DNA from: an uncultured Dehalococcoidia bacterium
GTDB taxonomy: Bacteria; Chloroflexota; Dehalococcoidia; SM23-28-2
DNA length: 64,000 bases
NCBI GenBank assembly: GCA_964512285.1
Contig: CAZEJO010000002.1
Location: 32,392-96,391 of the forward strand
Reading direction: 5' to 3'
How positions within the stretch are numbered: the first letter of the stretch is position 1; every line of letters starts with the position of its first letter. The position numbers were made by a program, and so were the translations under genes. Below the pieces are notes generated by a model. That model was given only the letters and a program-made list of their open reading frames with translations. It ran no database searches and was not told the DNA's origin. Of the stretch, positions 1,709-32,381 are shown piece after piece.

Positions 1709-2890
1709 ATGCTCAGCCTTGGCCCTGACGTTTACGTTCTCGTCTTCGTGCTGGCCGCGGCAGGAGCCTGGAGCCTGACAGCCCTTCTTCCCCTCCACCG
1801 CCTGGCGCGGCCGGCTGAAGCCCGCCTGGGCAGGCGACGGGTGGGAGGCCTGGCAGTTTTCGCTGCCTTCCTCCTAGCGCCCCTCCTGGTCTGTCTGGTC
1901 TCGTCTGACCTCTCCGACCTCCTGGCCTCCCATAAGCGCGAGACAGCCGGTCTGCTGGGTGCCGCCTTGATGATCCTCCTCCTGGGCCTCCTAGACGACT
2001 TCCGGGAGGTGAATTTCAAGATCAAGTTCCTTGTGCAGATAGCAGCCGCTTCCTTGGTGTTCGTCATCGGCTACCGCATCGAGGACGTGTCCCTGCCCTG
2101 GGGCGCCACCTTTTCCCTGGGATGGTCGGCTCCCCTGCTGACCATCCTCTGGCTGGTGTTCCTCACCAACGCCATGAACCTCATCGATGGCAAGGACGGG
2201 ATAGCAGCGGGTGTAGCGATCATCGTGGCCCTCCCCCTCGCTTTCATCGCCGCCGATGTGAACAACCCCCTGGTGGCCGCTCAGTTGGTGGCGGTAGCGG
2301 GAGCCTGCGCTGGCTTCCTCCCCCTCAACCTACCGCGGGCCTCGCGCCTGCTGGGCGACTCAGGAGCGTTGCTGCTGGGCTTCCTGCTGGCGGCCCTGGC
2401 CATCGAGGGCTCCATCGGTGTCACCGGCAGCATGTTCATCAGCGTGCCCATTGTCGCCCTGGGCTTCCCCATCCTCGACACACTGCTCGCTTTTGTCAGG
2501 CGGCTGGCAGACCTGCGGCACCCCTTCGTTGCTGATCTCGATCACATCCAGCATCGGCTGGAGCAGAGAGGCCAGAGCGACAGGGCGGTCGTCCTCTCCC
2601 TCTATGCCCTCTGCATCCTCTTCTCGGGAGCAGCGCTCACGATCCACTATCTCGAGGCAACCGTAGCCGAGTTCCTGGCCTTCTTTGCATTCGGCGCTGC
2701 TATTACTGCTGTCCTCTTCCGGCTGGACTACGCCAGCACTCTGTGGAACAGCGCCTCGCTGGCGTTCCTACGAGGCGCCCTCGCCTCCGCCGTCGGTCTC
2801 CGACGCCAGCCTCCACCGCCCGAGTCGGACGAGCCGAAGATGCCCTACGAGGATCGCCCCCTGCCCGCCAGCAAGCGTCGCCCGTTCTGA
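1709..2890 (+). CDS. Polyprenyl-phosphate N-acetylhexosamine-1-phosphate transferase (WecA/MraY/TagO family), initiating glycosyltransferase.
   Basis: Polytopic membrane protein with the conserved NAMNLIDGKDGIAAG motif of the MraY/WecA family. Sits in a glycan biosynthesis locus. Confidence 0.8.
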   Translation: MLSLGPDVYVLVFVLAAAGAWSLTALLPLHRLARPAEARLGRRRVGGLAVFAAFLLAPLLVCLVSSDLSDLLASHKRETAGLLGAALMILLLGLLDDFREVNFKIKFLVQIAAASLVFVIGYRIEDVSLPWGATFSLGWSAPLLTILWLVFLTNAMNLIDGKDGIAAGVAIIVALPLAFIAADVNNPLVAAQLVAVAGACAGFLPLNLPRASRLLGDSGALLLGFLLAALAIEGSIGVTGSMFISVPIVALGFPILDTLLAFVRRLADLRHPFVADLDHIQHRLEQRGQSDRAVVLSLYALCILFSGAALTIHYLEATVAEFLAFFAFGAAITAVLFRLDYASTLWNSASLAFLRGALASAVGLRRQPPPPESDEPKMPYEDRPLPASKRRPF

Positions 2891-3726
2891 AGCACCAGTT
2901 GATAGCCACAGCGGACGCCAATGCCCGCCAGGGTCAGCCCATCCAGCAGAGGATTGCTGCGCATGTGCTTGCGGTAATAGCGCCACATGCTGCGGTGCCA
3001 CTGGAGGATGCTCCTGTTAGGCAGAGTATCGCTGCTCCTGCCGATGTGGTGGGTTACCGCTGCCTGGGGGAAGTAGACCACCCGATAGCCGCCCTGATGA
3101 GCCCGATAGCAGATGTCTACGTCCTCGATGTACATGAAGAAGCCCTCGTCCAGAAGGCCGATGTCCGCCAGCATCTGGCGGCGGAGGAGCGTGCAGGCCC
3201 CCGACAGCCAGTCCATCTCCGCGATGCTGTCGTGGTTCCAATCGGACATCAGGTAGCGGCTGGAGAAGCGATTGCGGGGGAAGAGACGGGTGAGGATGGA
3301 CTGGCGATTGAACAAGCCGGTCAGATGGCTGGGGAAGCGCCGACAGGAGAGCTGCAACGAGCCGTCGCTGTTGAGCAGCTTGGGGCCGAGGATGCCCACC
3401 TGCGGCTGCTCGCGGCAGTAGGCGACCATCGGCGCGAAAGCGTTGTCGGCGATCTCCGTGTCAGGGTTCAGGAGCAGGATGAACTCGCCCTTGGCCTGGG
3501 CGATGCCCAGATTGCAGGCGGCGGCGAAGCCCACGTTGGCGGGGCAGCGGATGAGGCTCGCCTGGGAGAACTCCTTCTCCACCATCTGGACGCTGTCGTC
3601 CCAGGAGGCGTTGTCCACCACGATCACCTCATAGGCGATGCCGTCCGTGTGCTCGTACAACGAGCCCAGGCAGCGTCGCAGGTAATCTCTGGCGTTGAAG
3701 CTGACGATGACGACCGATAGGTCCAC
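2845..3726 (-). CDS. Glycosyltransferase family 2 (WbbL-like, candidate dTDP-rhamnosyltransferase acting on the GlcNAc-PP-lipid primer).
   Basis: N-terminus LSVVIVSFNARDYLRRCLGSL...VIVVDNASWDDS...NPDTEI gives the GT2 DxD architecture. Adjacent to wecA-like and rml genes. 3' end overlaps the convergent wecA-like gene by 46 bp. Confidence 0.7.
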   Translation of the reverse strand: MDLSVVIVSFNARDYLRRCLGSLYEHTDGIAYEVIVVDNASWDDSVQMVEKEFSQASLIRCPANVGFAAACNLGIAQAKGEFILLLNPDTEIADNAFAPMVAYCREQPQVGILGPKLLNSDGSLQLSCRRFPSHLTGLFNRQSILTRLFPRNRFSSRYLMSDWNHDSIAEMDWLSGACTLLRRQMLADIGLLDEGFFMYIEDVDICYRAHQGGYRVVYFPQAAVTHHIGRSSDTLPNRSILQWHRSMWRYYRKHMRSNPLLDGLTLAGIGVRCGYQLVLQNGRRLLAGRGRSS

Positions 3727-3729
3727 CGG

Positions 3730-4863
3730 CTAGCCCCTCGTTGAGCTCAGAGCCGCCTCATAGGCGGTTACCGTCCCGCGCGCCGTCCGCTGCCAGGAGA
3801 ACCGGCTGGCCCGCTCCAGGCCCTGTTTGCGCAGACGAGAGCGCAGGCGTTTGTCCCGCAGCGCCTTGGCCGATGTCTCGGCCAGGGCGCTCACATCACA
3901 AGCGTCCACCAGCAGAGCGGCGCCGTCCAGCACCTCGACCAGCGCCGGCGCCCTGGAGGCCACCACCGGCAGGCCGCAGGCCATCGCCTCCAGGGGCGGC
4001 AGACCGAAACCTTCGTACAGCGACGGGAAGACGAACAGGTCGGCCATGTTGTAGACCGCCGCCAGATCGTCCTCGGGCAGGTGGCCGACGAAGCGCACCT
4101 CATCCCTCAGGCCCAGGCCATCCACCAGCCGAAACAGCTTCTCGTACATCCAGCCCTTCTGCCCCGCGATGACCAGCCCCTGCTCCACGCCCTGCTGCTT
4201 GAGCCTGTGGAAAGCACGCACCAGCGTCGCCTGATTCTTGCCCGGCTCCAGCGTGCCTACGTTGAGGATGAAACTGGGCGGCAGCCCATATCTTTCACGA
4301 ACCGCCTCCATCCTAGCCGAATCCTCCAGCGGGTGAAAGCCAGGCGCCGGCGCCAGGGGCACCGCCCGTACACTTTCGGCTGGCAGCCCCAGATGACGCA
4401 CGACATCGCCCTTCACCGTCTCGGAGACAGCGATGGCGAGATCGGCCAGGCGGGCGCCAGCGCGGCTCGCTCCCTGAAAGTAAAGCCGACGCAGGACGGG
4501 ATAGCGACGGGGCAGGAGGAAAAACGTAACGTCGTGGAAGGTGATCACCCGCCGCCAGCCAGCGGACGCCAGCGGCGTCGTGTAGTGAGGCGAATGGAGG
4601 ACGTCCACGCCCAGGCGGCTAAGCTGCAGGGGCAGCATCGCCTGCTCCCAGAGCATCCTGGCCAGCCGCGAGGATAAGCGCACGGGCACCAAGCGGAAGC
4701 CATCCCTCTGCAGGCTGCGGCCATCGAACGTCTCGCGCTTGGCGAAGACAAAGTAGGTGTTCTCTCTGTCCACCTGGGCCAGGGCCTGCACCAGGTTGTA
4801 GATGTAGGTGCCCGCACCCGCTCTCTGGCGGGGAACCGAGGTGGCGTCGATAGCGATACGCAC
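3730..4863 (-). CDS. Glycosyltransferase family 4 (GT-B, retaining).
   Basis: C-terminal EX7E-type motif FVFPSLYEGFGLPPLEAMACGLPVVAS. Confidence 0.8.
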   Translation of the reverse strand: MRIAIDATSVPRQRAGAGTYIYNLVQALAQVDRENTYFVFAKRETFDGRSLQRDGFRLVPVRLSSRLARMLWEQAMLPLQLSRLGVDVLHSPHYTTPLASAGWRRVITFHDVTFFLLPRRYPVLRRLYFQGASRAGARLADLAIAVSETVKGDVVRHLGLPAESVRAVPLAPAPGFHPLEDSARMEAVRERYGLPPSFILNVGTLEPGKNQATLVRAFHRLKQQGVEQGLVIAGQKGWMYEKLFRLVDGLGLRDEVRFVGHLPEDDLAAVYNMADLFVFPSLYEGFGLPPLEAMACGLPVVASRAPALVEVLDGAALLVDACDVSALAETSAKALRDKRLRSRLRKQGLERASRFSWQRTARGTVTAYEAALSSTRG

Positions 4864-4876
4864 GCTCCAATTCCCC

Positions 4877-5803
4877 CTAACGAAAATGGGCCAGCTCGCG
4901 CGTGCGCCCCAGGCGGCCGCGGAAGAAGTCGGCGATGCCCATAAGCATGGCCCTCAGTTGCCGCCCCTGACCCCTGGCGAGATACGACACGAAGTAGCCA
5001 ACACGAGTCGCCAGGAAGTAGGCCAGGAATAGCGCAAAGCGCGGGCGAGAGGAATGCTTCCTCATGAGGTAGAGTCGATTGCGGCTGGCATAGTAGAGCT
5101 TGAAGGGCGATTCCACACCGCCGCTGGAGGCTGCCTTACGGTGGTGGATGACCGCCGCCGGATTGAGGCGAAGGCGATAGCCTGCTGCCTTGGCCCGCGC
5201 TACGAAGTCGAAATCCTCGTAGTACATGAAGAAGCGCTCGTCCATGAGGCCCGCGTCGCGGAAGACAGCCGCGGGCACCAGCAGGCAGCAGAGGCTAGCC
5301 ATGCTCACCTCTCGCGGCCGCTCGAACCCAGGCGGCTCCGGCTTGCCGTAGAGCCAACCCCGCCAGACGCCTCGCCGCCAGTCGAAGTCGCCCACCGTAT
5401 CGTCGAGCAAGCCCGGCTGGCCGTGGAGATAGGTCTTGGGAGCAACCATCGTCCGCTCGCCGGCGCTCTCCACCAGGCGATCCAGGAAGTCCTGGCTCAC
5501 CACCGTATCGTTGTTCAGAAAGAGAACGTAGTCGAAGCGCTGCTCCAGGCAGTGGAGGATGCCCACGTTGTGGCCACCGCTCACCCCCAGGTTCTCTCCG
5601 TTGCGTATCAGCGCCGCCTGCGGGCACAGCCGCGATATCTGCTCGGGCGAGCCGTCGTCAGAGGCGTTGTCCACCACCACTAGCCTGTAGTTAGGATAAG
5701 CGACCGCCCGCAACGAGGCCAGGAAGTCCTCGATGTAGGGCGCGCTATTGTAGTTGATGGTCAGGATGGCTACAGAGGGAAGACCCCTGTCCTGAGCAGC
5801 CAC
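4877..5803 (-). CDS. Glycosyltransferase family 2. The track ORF extends to 5983, but that extension overlaps rmlD by 170 bp. GTG at 5803 proposed as start.
   Basis: VAILTINYNSAPYIEDFLASL...YRLVVVDNASDDGS GT2 motifs. The upstream 60 aa are low-complexity and overlap the rmlD 3' end. Confidence 0.65.
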   Translation of the reverse strand: MAAQDRGLPSVAILTINYNSAPYIEDFLASLRAVAYPNYRLVVVDNASDDGSPEQISRLCPQAALIRNGENLGVSGGHNVGILHCLEQRFDYVLFLNNDTVVSQDFLDRLVESAGERTMVAPKTYLHGQPGLLDDTVGDFDWRRGVWRGWLYGKPEPPGFERPREVSMASLCCLLVPAAVFRDAGLMDERFFMYYEDFDFVARAKAAGYRLRLNPAAVIHHRKAASSGGVESPFKLYYASRNRLYLMRKHSSRPRFALFLAYFLATRVGYFVSYLARGQGRQLRAMLMGIADFFRGRLGRTRELAHFR

Positions 5804-5813
5804 GGGCAGCCCC

Positions 5814-6665
5814 CTAGCGACCCGCCCTGGCCGGGGTGGTGAGGAAGTACTCCTGAAGAGCCTCCTGCCAGGGCCGCAGGACGATGCCCAGGGCAGCCGC
5901 CGCCCGATTGGCCAGCTCCGAATAGGGCGGCTTGCGATAGGGCAGGCCGCCCTCGGCCTGGACGACCGGTCGCAGCGCGACATCGCGGCGGCCCGCCAGC
6001 TCCAGAACCCGCTCGGCCCACTGGTAGCGAGAGCAACTGCCGTTATTGGTCAGGTGATAGATGGCGTAGGTCGGCCGACCGATGAGCTCAGCGATGGCTT
6101 GAGCCAGGTCGCGGGCCCAGGTGGGCGAGGCGACTTCGTCGGTCACGAGGCGCAGCTCGCCTTCGTTGGCGACAGCGCGCAGAACCTTGGCTGAGAAGTT
6201 GTTGCCCCCGGCGGCGTACAGCCAGGCGGTACGCACGATGTAGAAGCGATCGAGGATGGATTGGACGTGTCGCTCTCCGGCGAGCTTCGACCGACCGTAG
6301 GCGTTGATCGGCTTGGGCTCGTCCGATTCCAGATAGGGCTCGCCCTTCTGGCCGTCGAAGACCTCGTTGGTGCTCACGTACAGCATGGCGACATCGCTCT
6401 CGCGACACGCCAGGGCCACCTGCCGGCTGCCCTCGCCGTTGACCCGCATGGCCAGCTCAGGGTCCGCCTCGCAGCCTGCGGTATCGGTGTAGGCGGCGGC
6501 GTGGACGACCACCTGCGGCCGAAACTGGCCGATGGCCCTACCGACCGCCGCCGCATCGGTGATGTCCAGTTCCGGCAGATCCTGGGCCAGCACCGTCTCC
6601 GCAGATAGCGCCTGCTGGAGCTCGCGGCCTAGCTGGCCACGGCCGCCGGTGATGAGGATGCGCAC
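5814..6665 (-). CDS. rmlD: dTDP-4-dehydrorhamnose reductase.
   Basis: MRILITGGRGQLGRELQQAL Rossmann N-terminus and RmlD-like length (283 aa), within an rml cluster. Confidence 0.85.
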   Translation of the reverse strand: MRILITGGRGQLGRELQQALSAETVLAQDLPELDITDAAAVGRAIGQFRPQVVVHAAAYTDTAGCEADPELAMRVNGEGSRQVALACRESDVAMLYVSTNEVFDGQKGEPYLESDEPKPINAYGRSKLAGERHVQSILDRFYIVRTAWLYAAGGNNFSAKVLRAVANEGELRLVTDEVASPTWARDLAQAIAELIGRPTYAIYHLTNNGSCSRYQWAERVLELAGRRDVALRPVVQAEGGLPYRKPPYSELANRAAAALGIVLRPWQEALQEYFLTTPARAGR

Positions 6666-6677
6666 GCCACCACCCCC

Positions 6678-7133
6678 TCAGCCCATCTTGATGGCCCAAT
6701 CGTACGGTATCTGGTCGGTATCCCAGGGGAGACGGTATTCATCCGGCTGCTGTGGGTCGTAAGGCTCAGTGGGGAAGTTGATGAGGAGGGAGGGCTCGAC
6801 GCCCACCGTCTTGTAGCCGTGCATGACCCCCATCGGTATCTTCACCAGAATGTTGTTCTGCTCTCCCAGGAAGAACTCATCCACCTGGCCCTGGGTGGAC
6901 GAACCCTCGCGGGCGTCGTATAGGGCCACCTTAGCCATGCCCTTCACCACCGCGATGTGGTCGTCCTGCTTCTTGTGATAGTGCCAGCCCCGCACCACGC
7001 CTGGATAGTTCAAAGACACGTAGGCCTGACCGAACTTGCCGAAGATATCATCGTCGCAGCGCAGAAGCTCCATCAATGCGCCCCGCTCATCCGCGTGCTT
7101 GGTGAGTTGCTTGATCTCCACGCCCTCGATCAC
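6678..7133 (-). CDS. rmlC: dTDP-4-dehydrorhamnose 3,5-epimerase-related cupin (RmlC-like).
   Basis: Cupin with GWHYHKKQDDH...VKIPMGVMHGY, positioned between rmlD and rmlB. Proposed GTG start at 7133 gives a GTGA overlap with the rmlB stop (translational coupling). The track ORF starts at 7172. Confidence 0.6.
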   Translation of the reverse strand: MIEGVEIKQLTKHADERGALMELLRCDDDIFGKFGQAYVSLNYPGVVRGWHYHKKQDDHIAVVKGMAKVALYDAREGSSTQGQVDEFFLGEQNNILVKIPMGVMHGYKTVGVEPSLLINFPTEPYDPQQPDEYRLPWDTDQIPYDWAIKMG

Positions 7134-8167
7134 AGTTCTCCCTCCTGACGAGCAGCTGCCTCCAGCCGCCAACCGTACTGGCGCTGGTAGTAGTCCTGAT
7201 AGTCACCCGAACGTGCCTTCTGCCACCACGACTCGTTGTCCCCGTACCAGGCGACTGTCCTGGCCAGGGCCTCATCGAAGCCGTAGCGAGGAGCCCAGCC
7301 CAGGGCCCTTATCTTCGACCAGTCCAAACTGTAGCGCTTGTCGTGCCCCGGGCGATCCTCCACGTGGCGGATCAGACTGCGCGGCTTGCCCACCAGATCG
7401 AGGATGGCCTCGGCCACATGGATGTTGTGCCGATAGTTGTCGGCAGCGACATTGTACACCTCCCCCGCCGTCCCTTTGTGCAGAAGCAGGTCGAGGGCCT
7501 CACAGTGATCCTCCACAAAGAGCCAATCGCGCACCTGACAGCCGTCGCCATACAGGGGCAGAGGCTCATCGCGCAGGGCATTGGTGACAAATAAGGGGAT
7601 CATCTTCTCCGGGTACTGACAAGGCCCCAATGTGTTAGCGCCGCGGCTGACAACGACCGGCAGGCCGTAGGAGGCGAAGAAGGCCAGGCAGAGCATATCA
7701 GCGGCCGCCTTGCTGGCGGCGTAGGGGTTGCGGGGCTGAAGAGGATCCGTTTCGCCAAACGAGTATCCTTCGGGCGCCTCGCCGTAGACCTCATCCGTGG
7801 AGACGTAGACGAAACGCTCGATGCCATGCTCGCGCGCAGCACAGAGAAGCACGTAGGTTCCATGAACATCGGTCCTGATGAAAGCATCCGCTCCCAGGAG
7901 CGAGCGGTCAACATGGGTCTCGGCGGCCAGGCTGACGATGGCGTCGGCCTCGCTCACCAACTCGTCCACAAGCTGGCGGTCGCAGATGTCGCCCTTGACG
8001 AAGCGATAGCGGGGGTCGCCCTCTACGTCGCGCAGGTTGTCGCGGTTGCCGGCGTAGGTAAGCTTGTCGACGTTGATGACCTCATACTCAGGGTACTCTC
8101 GCAGCAAGCGGCGCACGAAGTGACTGCCGATGAACCCTGCCCCACCAGTGACTAGAATCCTGCGCAT
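7130..8167 (-). CDS. rmlB: dTDP-glucose 4,6-dehydratase.
   Basis: MRRILVTGGAGFIGSHFVRRLL...YxxxK SDR-extended family; 345 aa. Confidence 0.9.
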   Translation of the reverse strand: MRRILVTGGAGFIGSHFVRRLLREYPEYEVINVDKLTYAGNRDNLRDVEGDPRYRFVKGDICDRQLVDELVSEADAIVSLAAETHVDRSLLGADAFIRTDVHGTYVLLCAAREHGIERFVYVSTDEVYGEAPEGYSFGETDPLQPRNPYAASKAAADMLCLAFFASYGLPVVVSRGANTLGPCQYPEKMIPLFVTNALRDEPLPLYGDGCQVRDWLFVEDHCEALDLLLHKGTAGEVYNVAADNYRHNIHVAEAILDLVGKPRSLIRHVEDRPGHDKRYSLDWSKIRALGWAPRYGFDEALARTVAWYGDNESWWQKARSGDYQDYYQRQYGWRLEAAARQEGEL

Positions 8168-8176
8168 GAGAAGCCT

Positions 8177-9259
8177 CTAGACCGCCGTAATCTGGCTGTG
8201 ATCGCCCAGGGTGAGGACGCAACGGCGGCCCTCCATCCCACCCTCCCCTCTCAGCTCCACATAGCGGCCGATGAGGCTGTCCTCGATGCGGTAGCCCACA
8301 CGCTCGATCAGCGTGTGCTCCATGACCACGCTGTTGGCGATGCGGCTGCCCTCCACCTGGCAGTGATGATAGATGGACGTGCGGGGCCCTATTTGCGAAT
8401 CGACGATCCGGCTCTCCTCGCCAATGGTCAGTGGGCCCTCCAGGACGCTGTTGATCACCTGGACACCGCGCTCGACGATAACCTTACCCCGCACCCGCGA
8501 GGCGCTGTCGATGCTGCCCTCACTCCGCGCTGGCAAAGCATCGAGAACGGTCGCGTTGGCCTCTAAAATATCGCCCATCTTGCCGGTGTCCATCCAGTAT
8601 CGGTCCAGCTCCTGGGCCTGGACAGACAGCCCTTTGTCGATCAGGTACTGGATGGTGTCTGTGATCTCCAGCTCGCCCCGCGCCGAAGGCCGCAGCTGCT
8701 GCACCGCCTCGAACACATGCTGGTCGAAGATGTAGACGCCGATGACCGCCAGGTCACTGGTCGGCTGGCTTGGCTTCTCCACCACCCGTGCCACCCGGCC
8801 ATCCACCAGCTCGGCCACGCCGAAGCTCTGAGGCGTGTCCACCCGTCTCAGAAGAAGCTGGCAGTTACTGGAATCGCTGCGAAAGCGCTCCACGAAGGGG
8901 GCCACACCGCCCAGCACCAGGTTGTCGCCCAGGTAGAGGACGAAGGGCTGGCCAACTAAGAAATCGGCGGCGATCTTCACAGCGTGGGCGATGCCCAGGG
9001 GGGCATCCTGCTGGATGTAGGTCACCCTGGCACCGAAGCGATTGCCGTCGCCCACCGCTTCCTCCACCTGCGCCCGCGTATCGCCCACTACGATGCCGAT
9101 GTCGGTGATGCCGCAGCCCACCAGGTCCTCGATGGCGTAGAAGAGGACGGGCTTGTTAGCGATAGGCACTAGCTGCTTGGCGCCGGAATAAGTGAAGGGG
9201 CGCAAACGTTCGCCTTTGCCGCCGCTGAGGATGAGGCCCTTGAGCTTGTCCTTTGCCAT
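8177..9259 (-). CDS. rmlA: Glucose-1-phosphate thymidylyltransferase, long form (~360 aa, with C-terminal left-handed beta-helix).
   Basis: LILSGGKGERLRPFTYSGAKQLVPIANKPVLFYAIEDL nucleotidyltransferase motif. The long form is typical of archaea and actinobacteria. Confidence 0.85.
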   Translation of the reverse strand: MAKDKLKGLILSGGKGERLRPFTYSGAKQLVPIANKPVLFYAIEDLVGCGITDIGIVVGDTRAQVEEAVGDGNRFGARVTYIQQDAPLGIAHAVKIAADFLVGQPFVLYLGDNLVLGGVAPFVERFRSDSSNCQLLLRRVDTPQSFGVAELVDGRVARVVEKPSQPTSDLAVIGVYIFDQHVFEAVQQLRPSARGELEITDTIQYLIDKGLSVQAQELDRYWMDTGKMGDILEANATVLDALPARSEGSIDSASRVRGKVIVERGVQVINSVLEGPLTIGEESRIVDSQIGPRTSIYHHCQVEGSRIANSVVMEHTLIERVGYRIEDSLIGRYVELRGEGGMEGRRCVLTLGDHSQITAV

Positions 9260-9412
9260 AGACCTCGGCCTGAACTAGGCTACGGGTAATTCTACCTTCC
9301 CCTAGTATCCGAACGCAAGCGAGCCTGGAGGCAGCCGGTCGTTCCTTGATTTGTGACTTCTGGCCTGCTAGTCTACGGTCTGGGATTGTGACGGTTTTGG
9401 GGGGGGAATTCT

Positions 9413-10222
9413 GTGCGAGCAGTGTCTGTGGCTGCGCCGCGCCGTTTCGATCTGTCCCAGCTGGCCCGCACCTGGGAGCTGTTGCTGCTCCTGACGGTGC
9501 GGGATGTGAAGCTGCGCTACGAGGGCACCATCCTGGGCTTCCTGTGGACCCTTGCCAAGCCCCTACTCCTAGCGCTGGTCTTCTCCTTCGCCCTGAGCCG
9601 CGTGCTGAGGATAGACGTGGGAGATGCTCCCTACGTCCTGTTCCTGCTGTCAGCTCTGTTCCCCTGGACCTGGTTCCAATCCTCGATCCAGTTCTCCGCC
9701 GGCTCCTTCTCCAATAACGCTGCCCTGCTCAAGAAAGTCTACTTCCCCCGTTTCGTCTTGCCTTTCTCGGCCGTTACCAGCCAGCTTATTCACTTCCTCC
9801 TCTCGATTCCGATACTGGCGCTGCTTCTTTTGGCTGCGGGTTATCGCCCCGGCCCGGAGTGGCTGCTCGGCGTGCCCGTGCTCATGGCCATCCAGCTTCT
9901 GATGCTAGCTGGAGCCGTCCTGTTGGTGGCCTCCTTCAACGTCTTCCTGCGCGACCTGGAGCACTTGGTGGAGGTCCTGATGCTCCTATGGTTGTACGTC
10001 ACCCCTATTCTGTACCCGCTCTCCCTGGTGAAGGAGAGGGTCGGGGCAATCATATATCTCAACCCGATGGCCTCGCTCATTCAGGCCTGGCGGGACCTGT
10101 TTCTGTACGACCAGCTTCCCGGCGTCGACATCTGGCCGGCCCTGGTGTTCGCCGTCATCGCTTTAGTGGCCGGCAGCATCGCATTCAAGACTCTCGAGGG
10201 ACAGTTTGAAATCGTCCTATAA
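9413..10222 (+). CDS. wzm: ABC-2 type polysaccharide export permease (Wzm/TagG/KpsM family).
   Basis: LLLLTVRDVKLRYEGTILGFLWTLAKPLL signature; 6 predicted TM helices; GTG start; followed by an overlapping ATPase gene. Confidence 0.8.
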   Translation: MRAVSVAAPRRFDLSQLARTWELLLLLTVRDVKLRYEGTILGFLWTLAKPLLLALVFSFALSRVLRIDVGDAPYVLFLLSALFPWTWFQSSIQFSAGSFSNNAALLKKVYFPRFVLPFSAVTSQLIHFLLSIPILALLLLAAGYRPGPEWLLGVPVLMAIQLLMLAGAVLLVASFNVFLRDLEHLVEVLMLLWLYVTPILYPLSLVKERVGAIIYLNPMASLIQAWRDLFLYDQLPGVDIWPALVFAVIALVAGSIAFKTLEGQFEIVL

Positions 10223-11003
10223 CGGACAAGCGGTCATCATCCTGGAGAACGTTTCCAAGCGCTACTTCCTCCACCCGCACCGCGTGAGGGAGTTGAAAAG
10301 GGCCATTTTGCATCTGCCGACCTTCTTGAAGACCAATCGGGCCAGGCAGCCCTTCTGGGCGCTCAGAGATGTCTCTCTTACCATCCGCCGGGGCGAGAGT
10401 GTGGGGATCATCGGCCCCAACGGCGCCGGCAAGAGCACCCTGCTGCGGATCGTCTCCCGCCTTGCGCCTCTAACGAAGGGAAAGCTCTCGGTGCGGGGGC
10501 GCGTCTCGCCCCTACTAGAGCTCGGAGCGGGTTTCCATGCTCAGATCAGCGGACGGGATAATGCCGTGCTCAACGCCGTTCTCCTGGGCCTGTCACGTAA
10601 GGAGGCCCAGGAGAAACTGCCGGAGATAGTGGAGTTCTCGGAGCTGGGGAATTTCATCGACCAGCCCATGCGCACCTACTCGTCCGGAATGTACGTGCGC
10701 CTTGGCTTCGCCGTGGCCGTCCACGTCAAGCCGGAGATCCTGCTCGTCGACGAAGTGCTAGCGGTGGGCGACGCTGACTTCCAGCGCAAGTGCTTCGACC
10801 ACATCGAGAAGCTGCGCCAGAGCAAGGCCACCATCGTCCTGGTGAGCCACGACCTGGAGAACGTGAAGCGATTCTGCGACCGGGCTGTCCTCCTCAACCA
10901 CGGGGCCATCGCCGCCGAGGGGGAGCCGCAGGAGGTGGTGGACGAATACCTGTCGAGCCACTTCGAGTTCTCAGCAGGAGCACAGGAAGCCGGCGATGAG
11001 TGA
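10206..11003 (+). CDS. wzt: Polysaccharide ABC exporter ATP-binding protein (Wzt/TagH), short form without a C-terminal carbohydrate-binding domain.
   Basis: Walker A GPNGAGKST, ABC signature YSSGM, Walker B LLVDEVLAVGD; only 265 aa. Confidence 0.85.
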   Translation: MKSSYNGQAVIILENVSKRYFLHPHRVRELKRAILHLPTFLKTNRARQPFWALRDVSLTIRRGESVGIIGPNGAGKSTLLRIVSRLAPLTKGKLSVRGRVSPLLELGAGFHAQISGRDNAVLNAVLLGLSRKEAQEKLPEIVEFSELGNFIDQPMRTYSSGMYVRLGFAVAVHVKPEILLVDEVLAVGDADFQRKCFDHIEKLRQSKATIVLVSHDLENVKRFCDRAVLLNHGAIAAEGEPQEVVDEYLSSHFEFSAGAQEAGDE

Positions 11004-12090
11004 AGTAGAACTACCCGACGCTGGTGAGCGGATGATACCCGCTTTCCACCACGAAGCCGTGGTCTATGCCGAACATATTGTCCGTTATCTGTTCGCTACT
11101 CGATTCGTCAGAGGCAAGCGAGTCCTGGATGTGGCCAGCGGAGTTGGCTACGGAGCCGATCTCCTGAGGTCGGCTGGGGCAGCCGAGGTTGTGGCCATAG
11201 ATCGGTCGCCGGAAGCAATGAAATACGGGCAGAAGCACCATTCCAAGTTCCAACCAGCCTACGTGGTGGGAGATGTCGAATCGCTACCTGTTCGGAGTAG
11301 CCAATTTGACGTCGTCGTATCCTTTGAGACAATCGAGCACGTCCCTGATTATCAGCGTTTCTTGGCCGAAGTGAAACGCGCTCTGCGCCAGGACGGCCTG
11401 TGCATCGTTTCCACTCCCAATAGAGACGTCTACGTGGAGGGAAACCCGTTTCATACAAAGGAGTTCACGTTCGCCGAGTTTGAGCAAGCGCTGGCGAGCC
11501 ATTTCCGATATGTGGAGACCTTCACGCAAGATGACTGGATAGCGAGCGCTGTCTTCTTTCCCGAAGAGATGGAAGGAGCCGATAAACCGTTGGGGAGGCA
11601 GCCAAGTCTCTTCAAGGCTGTTGGCAAATCGCCATCAGAAACGCTATACATGGTGAGTCTTTGCTCTGACGTGCCCTTACCCGAGGCCGGCCAAGAAGTG
11701 GTGCTGACGAGTCTCTATGAGATGCGTTACTATCTTCAAGAGATCGCTCAACGTGATGCGGAGATCGAAAGGCTCAAGGCCGATCTATCTGAGCGGGTGG
11801 CTATGCTAGCCCAGCGCGACGCTGACCTCGCCGAACGTGACGCGTCACTGGTGGAAAAGGACGCCACCATCAGGGAGTTGAGGGAAGCCTACCAGGACAT
11901 CTGGCGACAAATGGGAGCTCTTCAACGGTCCTTCGGCTATCGCCTCTTGGCGGGATACCGGCGGGCGATACGCCGGCTGTTCCCGCCGGACTCACTGAGG
12001 GGCCGTACGTATCGAAGGTCCGTACAAGGGTTGGAAGCCATTGTGCATCAACTCGCATATCTGCCCCGCCCACGGAGGCCACAGCGGTAG
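10996..12090 (+). CDS. Class I SAM-dependent methyltransferase with a C-terminal coiled coil and basic tail (candidate glycan chain-terminating methyltransferase, WbdD-like logic).
   Basis: Motif I VLDVASGVGYGADLL. Residues ~245-300 form a heptad-like repeat (AQRDAEIERLKADLSERVAMLAQRDADLAERDASLVEKDATIRELREAYQD). Arg-rich C-terminus. Start overlaps the wzt stop. Confidence 0.7.
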   Translation: MSEVELPDAGERMIPAFHHEAVVYAEHIVRYLFATRFVRGKRVLDVASGVGYGADLLRSAGAAEVVAIDRSPEAMKYGQKHHSKFQPAYVVGDVESLPVRSSQFDVVVSFETIEHVPDYQRFLAEVKRALRQDGLCIVSTPNRDVYVEGNPFHTKEFTFAEFEQALASHFRYVETFTQDDWIASAVFFPEEMEGADKPLGRQPSLFKAVGKSPSETLYMVSLCSDVPLPEAGQEVVLTSLYEMRYYLQEIAQRDAEIERLKADLSERVAMLAQRDADLAERDASLVEKDATIRELREAYQDIWRQMGALQRSFGYRLLAGYRRAIRRLFPPDSLRGRTYRRSVQGLEAIVHQLAYLPRPRRPQR

Positions 12091-12101
12091 CCTAGGGGGA
12101 T

Positions 12102-14360
12102 ATGTCTATGCCTCAGAAGCCGGCGACGAACTCCCAGGCCCCTAAAGGCCAGCCGAGAACAGATTCCCGCGATGTGAGTCGCGCGGAACTGACCCGGCTT
12201 CGACGAGGGGTGCGGCTTAGGCAAGAAGAGATCGAGAGCCTGCGGCGCCGCCTAAAAGACGTCGAGAGCTCGACGAGCTGGCGGCTGGTCCAGAGCATGC
12301 GGTCGTTGGTTTGGTTTTTCGCGCCCCCGGGTAGCCTCCGCTATCGGTTAGCGATCCGAGCAGTGCGATGGGCGTATTCGGCTCTGAGTACCCCGCCCAG
12401 CAGGCTAGTGAAGCAGCCGCTGCGCTGGGCAACGCGAGTAGTACGCGGCCGTCCAGCGCCTCAGCCGGAGGAATCGGTCTTCGTGGCACCGCGGGTGCAG
12501 AAGCTACGAGTAGGCTGCTACGGCGAGCATTCCTGGTCAGTGGGAGGAGGCGCGGTGCACGTGCTGAAGTTCCTGCTGGCCCTCTCCGACTTCTACGACG
12601 TGGACCTGCTGCTTCCTCCTGGGACACCTCTGCGAGACAAGCGATGGTACCGGCAGAATTTGAACATCGATATCGGAAACGTTGAGGTTAAGAGGTACAC
12701 TGCGGGCGCGGAGGACAACTACGATATCTGGTTCTCGGCAGCCAATGAGAGCATCGTGCTTGCCAGAACGCCGAAAAGCTTCAACATAGTGTTCTTCCCC
12801 TTCGTCGCTCAGGATGGTAGCGGCATCACGCACATCGCCAACAGCAATTACACCGCTTCCCACGTTAGAGAGCGTTACGGAACTCAGGACGTGATGGTGA
12901 TCTACCCCTCCATCGCTCCTGACGAGCTACCCCCCGGCATAAAGGAGCCCATGATCCTGCACGTCAGCCGTTTCACGCTCCCTTCCGCGTTTGCAGACAA
13001 GGCTCATCTAGCGATGATCCAGGCGTTTAAGCGGTTGTGTAGTCGAGGGTTCGAAGGATGGCGACTGGTTCTCGTGGGAGCTACTCTGGATGAGGGCGAG
13101 GCAGTATACGCTTCCCATCTTGCCCGCCATGCCGGCGGCTTTCCCATCGACATCAGGCCCAACCTATCGGCCGCAGAGCTACGTGACTTGTATTCGAGGG
13201 CTTCGATCTACTGGCATGCCACGGGATTGTCGCTGTCGGAACCGGCGGCTCAGGAACACTTCGGGCTGACTATTCTAGAGGGGATGGCTGCCGGAGCGGT
13301 CCCGATCGTCTTCAACTCCGGAGGACCGCCGGAGATTGTGACCCACGGAGAGCATGGTTTTCTCTTCAATTCAGTTGAGGAGCTTGTGAACCTAACGTGG
13401 GAAGTGGCGACCCAACCTGCCCTCTGGAAGAAGCTCTCTCAACGGGCCAACCGACGCTCCTACGACTTCAGCGATGAGGTGATGAAGGACAAGTTGCTAT
13501 CCACGGTAGCCAAGTCGGAAAAAGTATCCGTTATTATCGGTACTCACAACAATTGCCAATATTTGAGGGGGACACTAGACACTCTCTTTCGCCACACGCC
13601 ACCTGGATTTGAGCTCATCATAGTGAACAACGCTAGTGACGATGGAACGAACATCCTTCTGCAATCTCTCAACTATCCCCACCTGAAGATAATCAACAAC
13701 AAGGCAAATCGTGGCTTTGCCGCATTCAATAATCAGGGCCTGCGCCTCGCCACAAGGCCATACGTTCTCTTCCTCAACGACGATGTGGAGCTTACGCCGG
13801 GGTGGCTGGAGCCATTGATTGAGATGCTAGACCTGCACCCCAAAGTTGGTGCTGTGGGGTCACGTCTCCTGTACCCAGATGGTCGGGTTCAGCATGATGG
13901 GAAGATGTTTCTCGCAAAGGACCGCCTGCCCTACCATGTCAACATCGGTGGACGCCCTGGCGAGGACGAAAGACCGGTGGAGGTCGATACGCTGACGGCG
14001 GCTTGCCTCCTTGGACGCAGAGAACTGGTCGGGTTCTCCGAGGACTACCGGCGCGGATACTATGAGGATACCGACATGTGCCTCCGGATCAAAGAGCAAG
14101 GGTATGGCTTGGTCCTACATCGTGGAAGCGTTGTCATACACTACCACGGGATATCGATGGGCAAGAATCAGAGCGCCACAGAACGGGCTCAGGCCAGGAA
14201 CCAACGCCTCTTTTTGAAGCAATGGTCTGCCAAATTCCCGTCGTTAGTCTACATGGCTACGGAAAAGGAGCTTGCCAGCGGCAAGGTGCGCAGCCGGCGG
14301 ATACTGCCCGCTGATGTTTTCTCTCAGAGCTGGCCACTGTCCCACCGCTTGGGGCGCTGA
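12102..14360 (+). CDS. Multidomain glycosyltransferase: N-terminal coiled coil + GT4 + GT2 (candidate polymerase of the ABC-transporter pathway).
   Basis: aa 25-60 coiled coil (RAELTRLRRGVRLRQEEIESLRRRLKDVESS). GT4 motif EHFGLTILEGMAAGAVPIVFNSGGPPEIV. GT2 motif VSVIIGTHNNCQYL...LIIVNNASDDGT...DDVELTPGW. Confidence 0.75.
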   Translation: MSMPQKPATNSQAPKGQPRTDSRDVSRAELTRLRRGVRLRQEEIESLRRRLKDVESSTSWRLVQSMRSLVWFFAPPGSLRYRLAIRAVRWAYSALSTPPSRLVKQPLRWATRVVRGRPAPQPEESVFVAPRVQKLRVGCYGEHSWSVGGGAVHVLKFLLALSDFYDVDLLLPPGTPLRDKRWYRQNLNIDIGNVEVKRYTAGAEDNYDIWFSAANESIVLARTPKSFNIVFFPFVAQDGSGITHIANSNYTASHVRERYGTQDVMVIYPSIAPDELPPGIKEPMILHVSRFTLPSAFADKAHLAMIQAFKRLCSRGFEGWRLVLVGATLDEGEAVYASHLARHAGGFPIDIRPNLSAAELRDLYSRASIYWHATGLSLSEPAAQEHFGLTILEGMAAGAVPIVFNSGGPPEIVTHGEHGFLFNSVEELVNLTWEVATQPALWKKLSQRANRRSYDFSDEVMKDKLLSTVAKSEKVSVIIGTHNNCQYLRGTLDTLFRHTPPGFELIIVNNASDDGTNILLQSLNYPHLKIINNKANRGFAAFNNQGLRLATRPYVLFLNDDVELTPGWLEPLIEMLDLHPKVGAVGSRLLYPDGRVQHDGKMFLAKDRLPYHVNIGGRPGEDERPVEVDTLTAACLLGRRELVGFSEDYRRGYYEDTDMCLRIKEQGYGLVLHRGSVVIHYHGISMGKNQSATERAQARNQRLFLKQWSAKFPSLVYMATEKELASGKVRSRRILPADVFSQSWPLSHRLGR

Positions 14361-14426
14361 GAAGGAGCGGCCACTGCCACGCCGACCGCAGCGGCGTTCG
14401 GTCGCCAGGATTGACGGGAGGGTAGC

Positions 14427-15707
14427 GTGAGGCTCTGCTTCCTCATGTACCACGGCAGCATGTACTCTGGCGGGCAGGGCATCTATCTTCATTACCTGAC
14501 CCGCGAACTGGCCCGCTTGGGCCACGAGGTGCACGTCATCGCCGGCCCTCCCTATCCCGTCATGGCCGAGGGTGTTCAGGTACACCCCCTGGAGAGCTTT
14601 AGCTGGCTCCGCTACCTGGAAGCGCGGCAGGAGTTCCTGGCCAGGTCCAACCCCCTGAAGTTCTTCTATCCGCTAAACCTGTTCGAGCTCACCACCACCC
14701 GCGTCGGCATCTTGCCCCTGATGTTCACCTTCAGCCTGCGGGCGGTGGCCAAGTTCCAGGAGCTGCACCGGCATGAGCCCTTCGACCTGGTTCACGACAA
14801 CCAGGGCCTGGGCATCGGCCTGTTGCTGATGAAGAGCTTCGGCGTGCCGATCGTGGCCACCATCCACCAGCCCTTGTCAGTAGACATGCGCAACGCAGTC
14901 GCCCAAGCTGAGGGTTCGCTCGAGAAGATCCGTCGCGCGGCCTACTACTACCCCCTCTTCATGCAGGAATTCGTCGCCCGCCGCCTGGACGAGATCATCA
15001 CCGTATCGGAGGCATCAGCCAGCATGGTGGAGCTCGCCTTCGGCATCCCTAGAGCACGGATGAAGGTGATCTACAACGGCATTGATACGGAGGTGTTCCG
15101 TCCCTTGAAGGTGTCGAAGGAGCGCAATAGCATTATCTACGTAGGCAATTCGGAGGACCGCAACAAGGGCGCCGTCTATCTCCTCCAGGCGTTGCGCCAC
15201 CTACGCGACAGCACCGACTACCACCTGACCCTTGTCGATCGGCCGCGCCAGGAGCTGAAGCTAGTTCCCCGCCTGTTGCGCCGCCACGACCTGAGCACTC
15301 GCGTTCGCTTCACCGGGCGCGTTACCACGCCCCAACTGGTGCGCCACTACTGCCGCGCTCAGATGAGTGTCTGCCCCTCCCTGTACGAAGGGTTTGGCCT
15401 GCCCGCCGCCGAGGCCATGGCCTGCGGCCTGCCGGTGGTAGCCACCTCCGGCGGGGCGCTGCCCGAGGTGGTAGAGGACGGCGTCACCGGCATCCTCGTG
15501 CCGCCAGCCGATGCCCGTGCCCTGGCCGAGGCCATGGACAACCTCATGAGAGACGCCCAACTGCGGCAGCGAATGGGGCAGGCGGGCAGGGAGAGGATCC
15601 TGGAGAAGTTCAGTTGGCGGAAGGCTGCTTTGCAGACCGAGGCCGTCTACCAGCAGGTGTGCCAGCCGAGTCCGGCTGCGGCGTCAAAGCCTGTAACCGC
15701 ATCGTAG
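14427..15707 (+). CDS. Glycosyltransferase family 4.
   Basis: EGFGLPAAEAMACGLPVVATSGGALPEVVEDGVTGILVPP. Confidence 0.8.
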   Translation: MRLCFLMYHGSMYSGGQGIYLHYLTRELARLGHEVHVIAGPPYPVMAEGVQVHPLESFSWLRYLEARQEFLARSNPLKFFYPLNLFELTTTRVGILPLMFTFSLRAVAKFQELHRHEPFDLVHDNQGLGIGLLLMKSFGVPIVATIHQPLSVDMRNAVAQAEGSLEKIRRAAYYYPLFMQEFVARRLDEIITVSEASASMVELAFGIPRARMKVIYNGIDTEVFRPLKVSKERNSIIYVGNSEDRNKGAVYLLQALRHLRDSTDYHLTLVDRPRQELKLVPRLLRRHDLSTRVRFTGRVTTPQLVRHYCRAQMSVCPSLYEGFGLPAAEAMACGLPVVATSGGALPEVVEDGVTGILVPPADARALAEAMDNLMRDAQLRQRMGQAGRERILEKFSWRKAALQTEAVYQQVCQPSPAAASKPVTAS

Positions 15708-15926: not shown

Positions 15927-15975
15927 GCTAGCGTCCCCAGTAGAACTCGAACCCACAATCGCCTGGTCCGAAGTA
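15927..15975 (-). pseudogene. Degenerate copy of the 3' half of tRNA-Arg (T-arm + acceptor 3' strand), with no matching 5' half.
   Basis: 49 bp are ~90% identical to 19741..19790 (ctagcgYccccRgYagRactcgaacccacaaYcgcctggtccgaag). The minus-strand sequence folds as a T-arm GTGGG/TTCGAGT/TCTAC plus TGGGGAC, but no complementary acceptor 5' strand is present upstream. Confidence 0.45.
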
Positions 15976-16246: not shown

Positions 16247-17041
16247 ATGAAGCTGACATCCTTGTTACGCCGCGTCCGGAGAGCTACTCAGCGTCCTTCC
16301 GTGCATCCAGATTCCCCCTTGGACATCGACATCAAGGCCGAGGCCTCAAAACTGCACTGGTACCACTGCATCAAGCTCGCGCCGGGCTACACAACTCCGG
16401 GGATAGCAGGTTGGTCAGCGGATACATCCGGCTGGGAAAAGAAGTATCTGTTTCCCTCTGCCAAGGAGCTGCGCGGCAAATCTTTGCTGGACATCGGCAC
16501 CATGAACGGGTTCTTCGCCTTTGAAGCGGAGAGGAGAGGCGCCTCCCCTGTGGTGGCTATAGATCGGGATCCTCCCGGCTTCCCTGACGCGAGGGAGGCC
16601 TTCAATTTCGCCGCCCGAGCTCTCGAGTCCCGCGTCACCTATCGGGTACGCTCCGTCTACGACCTCGAACCCACAGATTCCGGCACGTTCGATTTCGTCC
16701 TAATGTACGGAGTCCTGTACCACTTGAAGTTCCCGTTGTATGGCCTGTACCGAGCGGCTAGCGTATGCCGTGACGTCTTTCTCCTCGAGACTCACGTCAC
16801 TTTGAAGGATGATTACTCAAGGCCGATGATGCTCTTCTACCCCGGCAATGAGCTTAACGACGAGCCGACAAACTGGTGGGGACCAAACACACGCTGCGTC
16901 GATGCCTTCGTGGAGCATCTGGGATTCCGCATTGAGAAGCGCCTCACTCATCAACAGGATGTCGCTGGCCTCGCGCCAGCTCGCTACACCGTGTGCTGTC
17001 GCCGTGTCCGGCCGACCCCTCCGCCCTTCAGCGAACTCTAG
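16247..17041 (+). CDS. Class I SAM-dependent methyltransferase-like protein.
   Basis: WYHCIKLAPGYTTPG...GKSLLDIGTMNGFFAFEA (glycine-rich motif I) ... FDFVLMYGVLYHLKFP. The last 9 codons lie inside a 135-bp repeat shared with the next gene. Confidence 0.5.
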   Translation: MKLTSLLRRVRRATQRPSVHPDSPLDIDIKAEASKLHWYHCIKLAPGYTTPGIAGWSADTSGWEKKYLFPSAKELRGKSLLDIGTMNGFFAFEAERRGASPVVAIDRDPPGFPDAREAFNFAARALESRVTYRVRSVYDLEPTDSGTFDFVLMYGVLYHLKFPLYGLYRAASVCRDVFLLETHVTLKDDYSRPMMLFYPGNELNDEPTNWWGPNTRCVDAFVEHLGFRIEKRLTHQQDVAGLAPARYTVCCRRVRPTPPPFSEL

Positions 17042-19727: not shown

Positions 19728-19744
19728 CCGTATCTGAAAGCTAG

Positions 19745-24663: not shown

Positions 24664-24665
24664 CC

Positions 24666-25984: not shown

Positions 25985-25992
25985 GGAAGGCT

Positions 25993-27033: not shown

Positions 27034-27042
27034 GGAGCGGCG

Positions 27043-29080: not shown

Positions 29081-29103
29081 CGCCGTGCCCCTCGATTGAC
29101 AGA

Positions 29104-30380: not shown

Positions 30381-30382
30381 CC

Positions 30383-32365: not shown

Positions 32366-32381
32366 GGAGGCGCAGTTAGCC

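Follow-up and report, generated by a model that had tools for sequence, protein, structure and literature searches.

We analyzed a 64,000-nucleotide stretch of contig CAZEJO010000002.1 (assembly GCA_964512285.1, positions 32,392 to 96,391) from an uncultured Dehalococcoidia bacterium, and refer to the whole of this stretch as the window. Genes were called from a listing of open reading frames (ORFs) together with Pfam and NCBIfam profile searches, and the curated equivalog cut-offs of the TIGR models were used to judge specificity. Positions 1709–15707 were found to form one contiguous glycan-biosynthesis locus (Table 1), comprising a WecA/TagO-type initiator, five glycosyltransferase (GT) proteins with six GT modules, rmlA (long form), rmlB, a cupin gene and rmlD, and the ABC exporter Wzm/Wzt. 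The initial annotation of this DNA had described a rhamnose-glycan locus of the ABC-transporter type, and all of the gene classes that it named were recovered by profile searches with strong support. Its inventory was otherwise accurate but omitted the gene at 10996–12090, whose product, a methyltransferase (MT) with a coiled coil (CC), is central to the mechanism proposed below. Its count of five GTs is right for proteins, not for modules.

Gene content and relatives of the locus

The minus-strand operon runs from 9259 to 2845 (rmlA, rmlB, the RmlC-like cupin gene, rmlD, GT2b, GT4a, and GT2a), and its genes are 3–13 nt apart or overlap. The plus-strand operon comprises wzm, wzt, MT-CC, CC-GT4-GT2, and GT4b, with successive overlaps between the reading frames of the first three. 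The initiator gene, PNPT, lies on the plus strand and is convergent with GT2a. A scan for sigma-70 promoters and terminators gave counts similar to those of shuffled sequences and nothing in 9260–9412, the sigma-70 consensus being uninformative for this phylum. An Rfam scan of the window returned two tRNAs only, with no regulatory RNA near the locus. The GC content is 0.58–0.59 across 10000–14000 (wzt, MT-CC, and GT4-GT2), compared with 0.62–0.65 in the flanking rml and GT genes. Since GC values are similar in the second half of the window, the drop is no clear sign of horizontal transfer.

Table 1. Features of the glycan locus and of the islet next to it, in window coordinates (TM, transmembrane; SAM, S-adenosylmethionine; HexNAc, N-acetylhexosamine).
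Feature	Coordinates	Strand	Basis
PNPT, WecA/TagO-like polyprenyl-phosphate HexNAc-1-phosphate transferase, 393 aa, polytopic	1709..2890	+	PF00953, E 1.3e-34
GT2a, soluble family-2 GT, last gene of the minus-strand operon	2845..3726	-	PF00535, E 2.6e-24; no TM segment
GT4a, GT-B family-4 GT	3730..4863	-	PF00534, E 6.7e-40
GT2b, family-2 GT, candidate rhamnosyltransferase	4877..5803	-	PF00535
RmlD, dTDP-4-dehydrorhamnose reductase	5814..6665	-	TIGR01214, 285 bits vs cut-off 224
RmlC-like cupin, short, 151 aa, divergent subfamily	6678..7133	-	PF00908, 66 bits, above gathering score
RmlB, dTDP-glucose 4,6-dehydratase	7130..8167	-	TIGR01181, 441 bits vs cut-off 365
RmlA, long form (nucleotidyltransferase + C-terminal left-handed beta-helix)	8177..9259	-	TIGR01208 rmlA_long, 420 bits vs cut-off 320
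Divergent intergenic region, 153 bp, rmlA operon / wzm operon, presumed promoters	9260..9412	.	gene coordinates
Wzm, ABC-2 type permease	9413..10222	+	PF01061, E 1.4e-12; ~6 hydrophobic segments
Wzt, ABC nucleotide-binding subunit, 265 aa	10206..11003	+	PF00005
MT-CC, SAM-dependent methyltransferase + coiled coil, 364 aa, candidate terminator/ruler	10996..12090	+	PF08241, E 6e-23
CC-GT4-GT2, 752 aa, candidate polymerase	12102..14360	+	PF00534 + PF00535
GT4b, ManT-like retaining GT4, candidate alpha-hexosyl/mannosyl transferase	14427..15707	+	39% identity to ManT, PDB 7QSG
tRNA-Arg 3'-half copy, 47 nt, att-like scar, right edge of core locus	15927..15973	-	matches tRNA-Arg at 19744-19818
MT2, second SAM methyltransferase, outside 1709-15707	16247..17041	+	Methyltransf_9/23/11 matches
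135-nt direct repeat, left copy	17008..17142	+	96% identical to right copy, spacing 2583 nt
GT-C fold membrane glycosyltransferase, 717 aa, C-terminal beta-sandwich, outside 1709-15707	17499..19652	+	AF2 model, Foldseek
135-nt direct repeat, right copy	19591..19725	+	96% identical to left copy
tRNA-Arg(TCG), integration landmark	19744..19818	-	Rfam scan

Relatives were sought by a one-genome-per-species scan with the 752-aa GT4-GT2 protein as the query, followed by tblastn of all window proteins. The scan yielded 14 loci (at least 14 related contigs) with 54–92% identity; individual loci are designated by L numbers. Thirteen of the 14 came from metagenome-assembled genomes labelled Dehalococcoidia, Chloroflexota, Chloroflexi, or Chloroflexia. 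The best match, CP070630.1 ('Dehalococcoidia bacterium bin98'), showed 92% amino-acid identity and the same gene order, and tblastn found the gene order fully kept in L001. The exception, L004 (JAIVWR010000021.1), is a 12-kb contig labelled Acidobacteriota whose proteins are 81–96% identical to those of other loci, and it was probably mis-binned. Even the relatives with ~55% identity (L009–L014) retain a core of rmlA/B(/C/D), GT2b, MT-GT4-GT2, a second methyltransferase, and Wzt/Wzm. The gene order kept across relatives indicates that the locus is no chance assortment. The L009–L014 loci yielded neither a ligase (LCP, Wzy_C) nor an S-layer gene; they carry extra methyltransferases, GT-C enzymes, BACON-domain proteins, and alternative terminator-polymerases. 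The large BACON_2-domain proteins adjoining these distant clusters (L009 11082–12578; L014 3269–5743) may be surface or carbohydrate-binding proteins.

The origin of the relatives bears on the type of cell envelope. For Chloroflexota genomes the monoderm paradigm is current, and key outer-membrane genes have been reported missing in Tepidiformales (PMC10284905). In Dehalococcoidia, peptidoglycan is ancestral and its genes have been lost in many orders, and all of the cultivated members examined have S-layers (PMC10284905). With nearly all relatives assigned to Dehalococcoidia or other Chloroflexota, this paradigm upholds the earlier proposal of a monoderm host that makes no lipopolysaccharide (LPS). 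The gene content formally equals that of ABC-transporter-dependent O-antigen loci, so that a classical LPS O-antigen cluster of a diderm had to be considered. This alternative is already largely refuted and extremely improbable: the close homologous loci are all labelled Dehalococcoidia, Chloroflexota, or Chloroflexi, save the probably mis-binned L004, Chloroflexota genomes are considered to be devoid of outer-membrane genes (PMC10284905), and no GT had an LPS-specific best match. Moreover, lipid A (lpx), Lpt, and waaL genes were absent from the set of likely genes that we scanned over all 64 kb, and from the fetched loci of relatives. Our literature search found nothing specific on rhamnose or wall glycans of Dehalococcoidia.

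PNPT has ~11 hydrophobic segments and the motifs LLDDF, NAMNLIDGKDGI, and DLDHIQHRL; these segments, together with the DD and NxxNxxDGxDG motifs, agree with the fold of this family, in which ~10–11 TM segments are expected. We take HIQH to be a variant of the WecA loop motif HIHH. The best NCBIfam match was TIGR02380 (ECA_wecA), at 80 bits against a cut-off of 326, with the MraY models scoring lower. As this is far under the WecA equivalog cut-off, specificity for N-acetylglucosamine (GlcNAc) is putative, and GlcNAc-1-phosphate is named here as the probable substrate. Searches of PDB sequences returned generic or weak matches only. The distant relative L011 carries, at 3841–4815, a Bac_transf initiator of the WbaP/WsaP type in place of PNPT.

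A full dTDP-rhamnose pathway had been proposed. RmlA (long form), RmlB, and RmlD pass their equivalog cut-offs, while the RmlC step is assigned from context, the cupin failing TIGR01221, the RmlC equivalog (53 bits, cut-off 156). For the cupin we now place the start at the GTG at 7133, preceded by AGGAGG and in overlap with the rmlB stop, and the best PDB match was the uncharacterized 3EJK. Based on its position between rmlB and rmlD, the cupin is presumed to be the dTDP-4-keto-6-deoxyglucose epimerase.

A GT2 of the locus had been called WbbL-like. Family-2 enzymes are indeed present, but their resemblance to the rhamnosyltransferase model TIGR01556 is sub-threshold (68 bits for GT2a and 74 bits for GT2b, cut-off 200), although GT2b aligns over its full length (5–280 of 281). 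We moved the start of GT2b from 5983 to a GTG at 5803, placing it 8 nt past the rmlD stop. GT2b is kept beside the rml genes in the distant relatives L009–L014 with 32–36% identity, and tblastn detection of GT2a was confined to three close relatives (L001, L003, and L012). Against PDB sequences, GT4a gave generic GT4 matches only, and GT2b generic or weak ones.

Over 402 aa, GT4b and M. hassiacum ManT (PDB 7QSG) are 39% identical (E 3.5e-72), and equivalents of the catalytic residues K240, E313, and E321 of ManT are kept. ManT is the alpha-1,4-mannosyltransferase of 3-O-methylmannose polysaccharide (MMP) (PMC9883506). This likeness makes a methylated rhamnose/hexose heteroglycan more likely than a pure rhamnan. 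Since a methyltransferase gene (MT2) follows next downstream, as in the M. hassiacum system, the product could also be imagined as intracellular, either an MMP-like polymethylated polysaccharide or a glycosylated secondary metabolite. We regard this as very improbable. The genes share an operon with Wzm/Wzt and adjoin PNPT, implying a lipid-linked and exported product, whereas the MMP of mycobacteria is cytoplasmic and involves no lipid primer or exporter. Secondary-metabolite machinery was not detected: a scan of the likely genes in the full 64 kb gave no polyketide synthase, nonribosomal peptide synthetase, or MmpH-like hydrolase. No counterpart of MeT1 was found either, and MT2 has no specific match to the solved methyltransferases of the MMP pathway.

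Coiled-coil methyltransferase, candidate polymerase, and exporter

MT-CC consists of three parts, a class-I SAM methyltransferase, a heptad-rich segment, and a basic tail. The AlphaFold (AF2) model contains a Rossmann domain, an uninterrupted helix predicted at residues 240–311 (72 residues), and two short helices, with basic helices predicted at 313–354. A fold search retrieved generic class-I methyltransferases only, among them RebM and AtmM, two sugar O-methyltransferases. Membership in the WbdD family was considered and rejected, as no WbdD was present among the PDB sequence matches or the top 50 fold matches.

CC-GT4-GT2 begins with a shorter coiled-coil/amphipathic stretch, followed by the GT4 and GT2 modules. 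An exact look-up in public assemblies found no identical 752-aa protein on record. In more distant relatives, MT and GT4-GT2 are joined in one ORF of ~990 aa (L011 9197–12169; L009 3624–6608), and many fused homologues of 980–1050 aa were detected. Using BLASTP, MT-CC aligned to residues 6–338 and CC-GT4-GT2 to residues 269–990 of the fused protein P0064 (990 aa), with both covering residues 269–338. The C-terminus of MT-CC and the N-terminus of CC-GT4-GT2 accordingly have in common a ~70-residue coiled-coil/'S-x-x-W-R-L...P-P-x-S-L-R' segment (29% identity over 52 aa). The alignment of both window proteins to the same P0064 junction indicates gene fission with duplication of the junction. The duplicated segment may provide a simple route for association of the two halves and is a candidate docking element. 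Neither WsaE nor any other named homologue was among the homologue matches listed.

Other relatives carry alternative terminator-polymerase proteins at the same position in the locus (L012 7964–10783 and 10784–12421; L010 5994–8795 and 8948–12094). Their architecture is MT-coiled coil-GT2-GT2 with a length of ~935 aa, and two such multi-module proteins stand in tandem in L010. The pattern looks like a serotype-style exchange of cassettes.

A coiled-coil terminator protein is a marker of length-controlled, ABC-transporter-dependent glycan assembly, as represented by WbdD, which recruits WbdA in Escherichia coli O8/O9a, and by WbbB of Klebsiella pneumoniae O12 (PMC11231755). ORF6 of K. pneumoniae O7 comprises a methyltransferase, a coiled coil, and two GT modules and is encoded beside rml, wzm, and wzt; the GT modules are present in some of its orthologues and missing in others (PMC11231755). 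In Geobacillus, WsaE combines a methyltransferase with two rhamnosyltransferase domains and is encoded directly after wzm-wzt; it ends a poly-L-rhamnan with a 2-O-methyl cap (PMC2943079).

The WbdD-WbdA (E. coli O8/O9a and K. pneumoniae O5/O3), WbbB, and ORF6 systems resemble the window in PNPT priming, cytoplasmic polymerization, and Wzm/Wzt export. They additionally have an extended coiled coil between a terminating methyltransferase and the multi-module GTs. The fused MT-CC-GT-GT form in L009–L014 resembles O7 ORF6, and the split form in the window resembles WbdD/WbdA. Unlike these systems, however, the window comes from a Chloroflexota host that is regarded as monoderm and offers no lipid A-core acceptor, and its candidate terminator has no kinase domain. 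The polymerase pairs GT4 with GT2, in contrast to two GT4 or two GT2 modules, and, as a further difference, both halves of the split pair keep a copy of the coiled-coil/amphipathic segment.

The best NCBIfam match of Wzm was the galactan-export Wzm, below the cut-off, and Wzt scored ~195–199 bits against the TagH and galactan Wzt models, again below the cut-off. Overall, Wzm and Wzt gave similar scores against the capsule, teichoic-acid, and galactan exporter models.

Downstream islet and neighboring genes

A partial copy of tRNA-Arg and the intact tRNA-Arg flank MT2, with or without the GT-C gene. The same arrangement was found in L001 (fragment 13871–13920; tRNA 15101–15177), indicating an att-like islet; no integrase gene was found inside it. 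MT2 scored 101 bits against TIGR04290, below the cut-off. Its matches among PDB sequences were generic or weak, none being specific to the solved methylmannose-pathway methyltransferases. Homologues with 66–70% identity, a value above that of the other core genes, adjoin the gene for the polymerase in L009, L011, and L013.

Each copy of the 135-nt direct repeat contains an ORF 3′ end and the same terminator-like hairpin, first seen in the terminator scan. The GT-C ORF accordingly ends in ~20 codons that duplicate the MT2 3′ end. The 2.58-kb GT-C cassette is missing in L001 and L004 (empty site) and present in L021 and L022, which suggests gain or loss by recombination.

The 717-aa GT-C protein had no Pfam or NCBIfam match. 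A Foldseek search with its AF2 model (pLDDT 84.5) retrieved ALG12, ArnT, AftB, EmbC, and STT3/PglB/AglB (E 4e-8 to 1e-4). The model predicts a polytopic N-terminal domain and an extracytoplasmic C-terminal domain, and would place the invariant D61 and D62 in the first external loop. Some homologues are named 'arabinofuranosyltransferase' in JGI. The simplest reading, by analogy with GacL or the mycobacterial Aft enzymes, would be an optional decoration of the glycan outside the cytoplasm (PMC8035078); alternatively, the protein may act as an oligosaccharyltransferase (OST). Other, small GT-C enzymes (GT87-like and PIG-V-like) occur between the methyltransferases and wzt in L011 (13763–14965) and L009 (8194–9387).

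The hydrogenase/Hdr neighborhood pointed out in the initial annotation is real, lying at 22–36 kb with more such genes at 44–49 kb and 60–62 kb. A first hydrogenase module, within 22354–35921, contains hypF/D/E, a sensor kinase and a response regulator, HdrBC-like, HdrA, and MvhD genes, NiFe small and large subunits, and a protease. A second, separate NiFe hydrogenase module is of the FAD/NAD-binding oxidoreductase type, and an additional Hdr-like protein has a CCG domain; the hydrogenase and Hdr-like genes beyond the first module lie at 44525–49140 and 60357–62510. These genes look like Mvh/Hdr-type energy metabolism outside the glycan locus. The combination of hypF/D/E, HdrBC-like, HdrA, MvhD, and NiFe hydrogenase genes fits an anaerobic host.

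Proposed pathway and destination of the glycan

We consider it probable that the locus encodes an ABC-transporter-dependent, polyprenol-linked cell-surface heteroglycan of a Dehalococcoidia host, a member of a class regarded as monoderm and LPS-free. The type of pathway previously assigned, O-antigen-like and ABC-transporter-dependent, was supported by the presence of PNPT, cytoplasmic GTs, Wzm/Wzt, and a coiled-coil methyltransferase (PMC11231755); our scan of likely genes throughout the 64 kb found no Wzx or Wzy family, and the fetched loci of relatives gave none.

In the proposed pathway, PNPT would load HexNAc-1-phosphate, probably GlcNAc-1-phosphate, onto polyprenyl phosphate at the cytoplasmic face, as its family and motifs suggest. 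RmlA, RmlB, the cupin, and RmlD would supply dTDP-L-rhamnose or a close 6-deoxyhexose, the epimerase step being assigned from context only. GT2a, GT4a, and GT2b may build an adaptor, and CC-GT4-GT2 with GT4b may extend a repeat that combines rhamnose with a second hexose, perhaps mannose. On the model of WbdD, WbbB, K. pneumoniae O7 ORF6, and WsaE, MT-CC would O-methylate the non-reducing end, and growth would stop at a length set by the coiled coil. MT-CC probably docks on the polymerase through the paralogous coiled-coil/amphipathic segment kept from an ancestral fused MT-CC-GT4-GT2 protein. The completed lipid-linked chain would then be carried over the membrane by Wzm/Wzt, with no gating by the cap. 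Outside the membrane, the strain-variable GT-C may decorate the glycan, and the final transfer would be performed by an enzyme encoded elsewhere.

Several points weigh against this pathway or narrow it. Substrates and linkages throughout are deduced from sequence, models, and analogy. Aligned to RmlC 1EP0, the cupin keeps the His of RGxH but has Asp in place of the catalytic Lys and Phe in place of the Tyr. Given these replacements and the failed RmlC equivalog cut-off, the 6-deoxyhexose may not be L-rhamnose. The earlier term 'rhamnose glycan' is, in view of the ManT-like GT4b and the absence of two canonical catalytic residues from the cupin, probably too narrow. MT-CC might work like WbdD, yet it is not a family member, with no specific WbdD match. 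It is also missing in the close relatives L002, L004, L005, L021, and L022, all of which retain the polymerase, and therefore it is not strictly required. Wzt consists of the nucleotide-binding domain only and is devoid of the C-terminal carbohydrate-binding module that binds the cap in the E. coli O8/O9a prototypes; its orthologues in relatives are likewise 254–265 aa long. Because this Wzt has no cap-binding module, the transporter does not gate export by that means. Capping might thus only set the length, or the methyltransferase might act on internal residues. Finally, no LCP gene, no Wzy_C/WaaL-type ligase or O-oligosaccharyltransferase (O-OTase) gene, and no S-layer gene was found in the window or the fetched loci of relatives.

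A wall or S-layer destination, as previously suggested, is plausible. HexNAc-1-phosphate priming followed by LCP-mediated wall attachment is established for wall teichoic acid, streptococcal rhamnose polysaccharides, and mycobacterial arabinogalactan. By analogy, we slightly favor peptidoglycan as the final acceptor, which would be reached via an LCP-type ligase through a HexNAc-1-phosphate linkage unit. Attachment to an S-layer protein or to a lipid would be nearly as likely.

The streptococcal Group A carbohydrate system (GacO, GacB, GacC/F/G, GacDE, and GacI/L) resembles the window in its WecA/TagO initiator, dTDP-rhamnose GT2/GT4 enzymes, and ABC exporter, and it has a HexNAc-1-phosphate linkage unit in a monoderm and an optional GT-C decoration outside the cytoplasm (PMC6802508, PMC8035078). 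In contrast, an RgpF-type polymerase, a polyprenyl-phosphate-sugar synthase beside GT-C, and an LCP gene were not seen in the window, and MT-CC has no counterpart in the Group A carbohydrate locus. Mycobacterial arabinogalactan assembly (WecA, WbbL, GlfT1/2, Wzm/Wzt Rv3781/3783, and Aft/Emb) similarly begins with WecA-type priming, has a rhamnosyl linker step, and uses an ABC exporter. Among the NCBIfam models, those for galactan-export Wzm/Wzt were best or near-best for the window, yet all scores were far under the equivalog cut-offs. The GT-C enzymes of arabinogalactan act post-export, and AftB, EmbC, and AftA were among the fold matches of the window GT-C. Unlike arabinogalactan loci, the window has no galactofuranosyl or arabinose-donor genes, and its relation to WbbL is sub-threshold only.

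The wsa/slg locus of Geobacillus stearothermophilus NRS 2004/3a, the analogy originally drawn, holds for gene order and architecture: a monoderm host, rmlABCD, and wzm-wzt followed by an overlapping MT and two GT modules. It does not extend to membership. The wsa locus initiates with the Gal-1-phosphate transferase WsaP, and the window with PNPT; wsa includes the Wzy_C O-OTase WsaB and a linked S-layer gene, both absent in scans of the window and relatives' loci. The GC content, in distinction to wsa, is overall no lower than that of the surrounding genome. The likeness nevertheless raises the tentative possibility of an O-glycan on an S-layer or other surface protein, transferred to Ser, Thr, or Tyr by an OST encoded elsewhere or by GT-C itself. 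In line with this, wzm-wzt-[MT/GT/GT] with rmlABCD mirrors wzm-wzt-wsaE, L011 starts with a WsaP/WbaP-type Bac_transf, the GT-C model also matches STT3, PglB, and AglB, and S-layers are carried by every cultivated member of the class that was examined (PMC10284905). However, the top GT-C matches are ALG12, ArnT, and AftB, not OSTs, the GT-C gene is missing in the closest relatives that have the whole cluster, and the WsaB/PglL-type O-OTase and S-layer gene required by the analogy were not found in the window or the loci of relatives.

The absence of any kind of ligase in or near the locus would also suit a product that stays on a lipid, as a glycolipid or a polyprenol-borne lipoglycan, or one that leaves the cell as capsule or exopolysaccharide. 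Such a product would fit a Dehalococcoidia cell with no peptidoglycan, as the genes for this polymer have been lost in many orders (PMC10284905), and the exporter scored alike against capsule, teichoic-acid, and galactan models. We regard this possibility as doubtful, because KpsC/S-type and lipid-anchor genes are not present at the locus and HexNAc-1-phosphate priming in monoderms typically leads to LCP-mediated attachment to the wall.

A joint reading, unlikely in its entirety, would make the locus the source of the principal envelope glycan of a Dehalococcoidia lineage. The glycan would be a length-controlled, methyl-capped rhamnose/hexose polymer, carried on an S-layer protein or a lipid in a cell with no LPS and possibly no peptidoglycan. 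Antigenic switching from strain to strain would occur through swaps of the terminator-polymerase (split MT-CC and GT4-GT2, fused MT-CC-GT4-GT2, or MT-CC-GT2-GT2) and through gain and loss of the repeat-flanked GT-C cassette on the tRNA-Arg islet. If this is true, an uncultured monoderm phylum would possess a 'serotype' system, including a terminator that works without a cap-reading transporter.

For the preferred reading of a polyprenol-linked cell-surface heteroglycan, the kind of system is well described, the phylum is under-studied, and the mechanism is not conceptually new. The present analysis adds the coiled-coil methyltransferase, its fission from and fusion with the polymerase, the ManT-like GT, the divergent cupin, and the strain-variable GT-C islet. 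Positions 1709–15707 form a compact gene set that could be expressed in E. coli on undecaprenyl-diphosphate-linked GlcNAc (Und-PP-GlcNAc) to obtain the glycan. Dehalococcoidia abound in the subsurface and the sea, few members of the class have been cultured, and to our knowledge almost nothing is known of their envelope glycans. The locus offers a concrete, conserved candidate for a Dehalococcoidia surface polysaccharide, and it would mean that the coiled-coil terminator/polymerase logic of Gram-negative O-antigens extends to Chloroflexota, where fused and split versions both occur.

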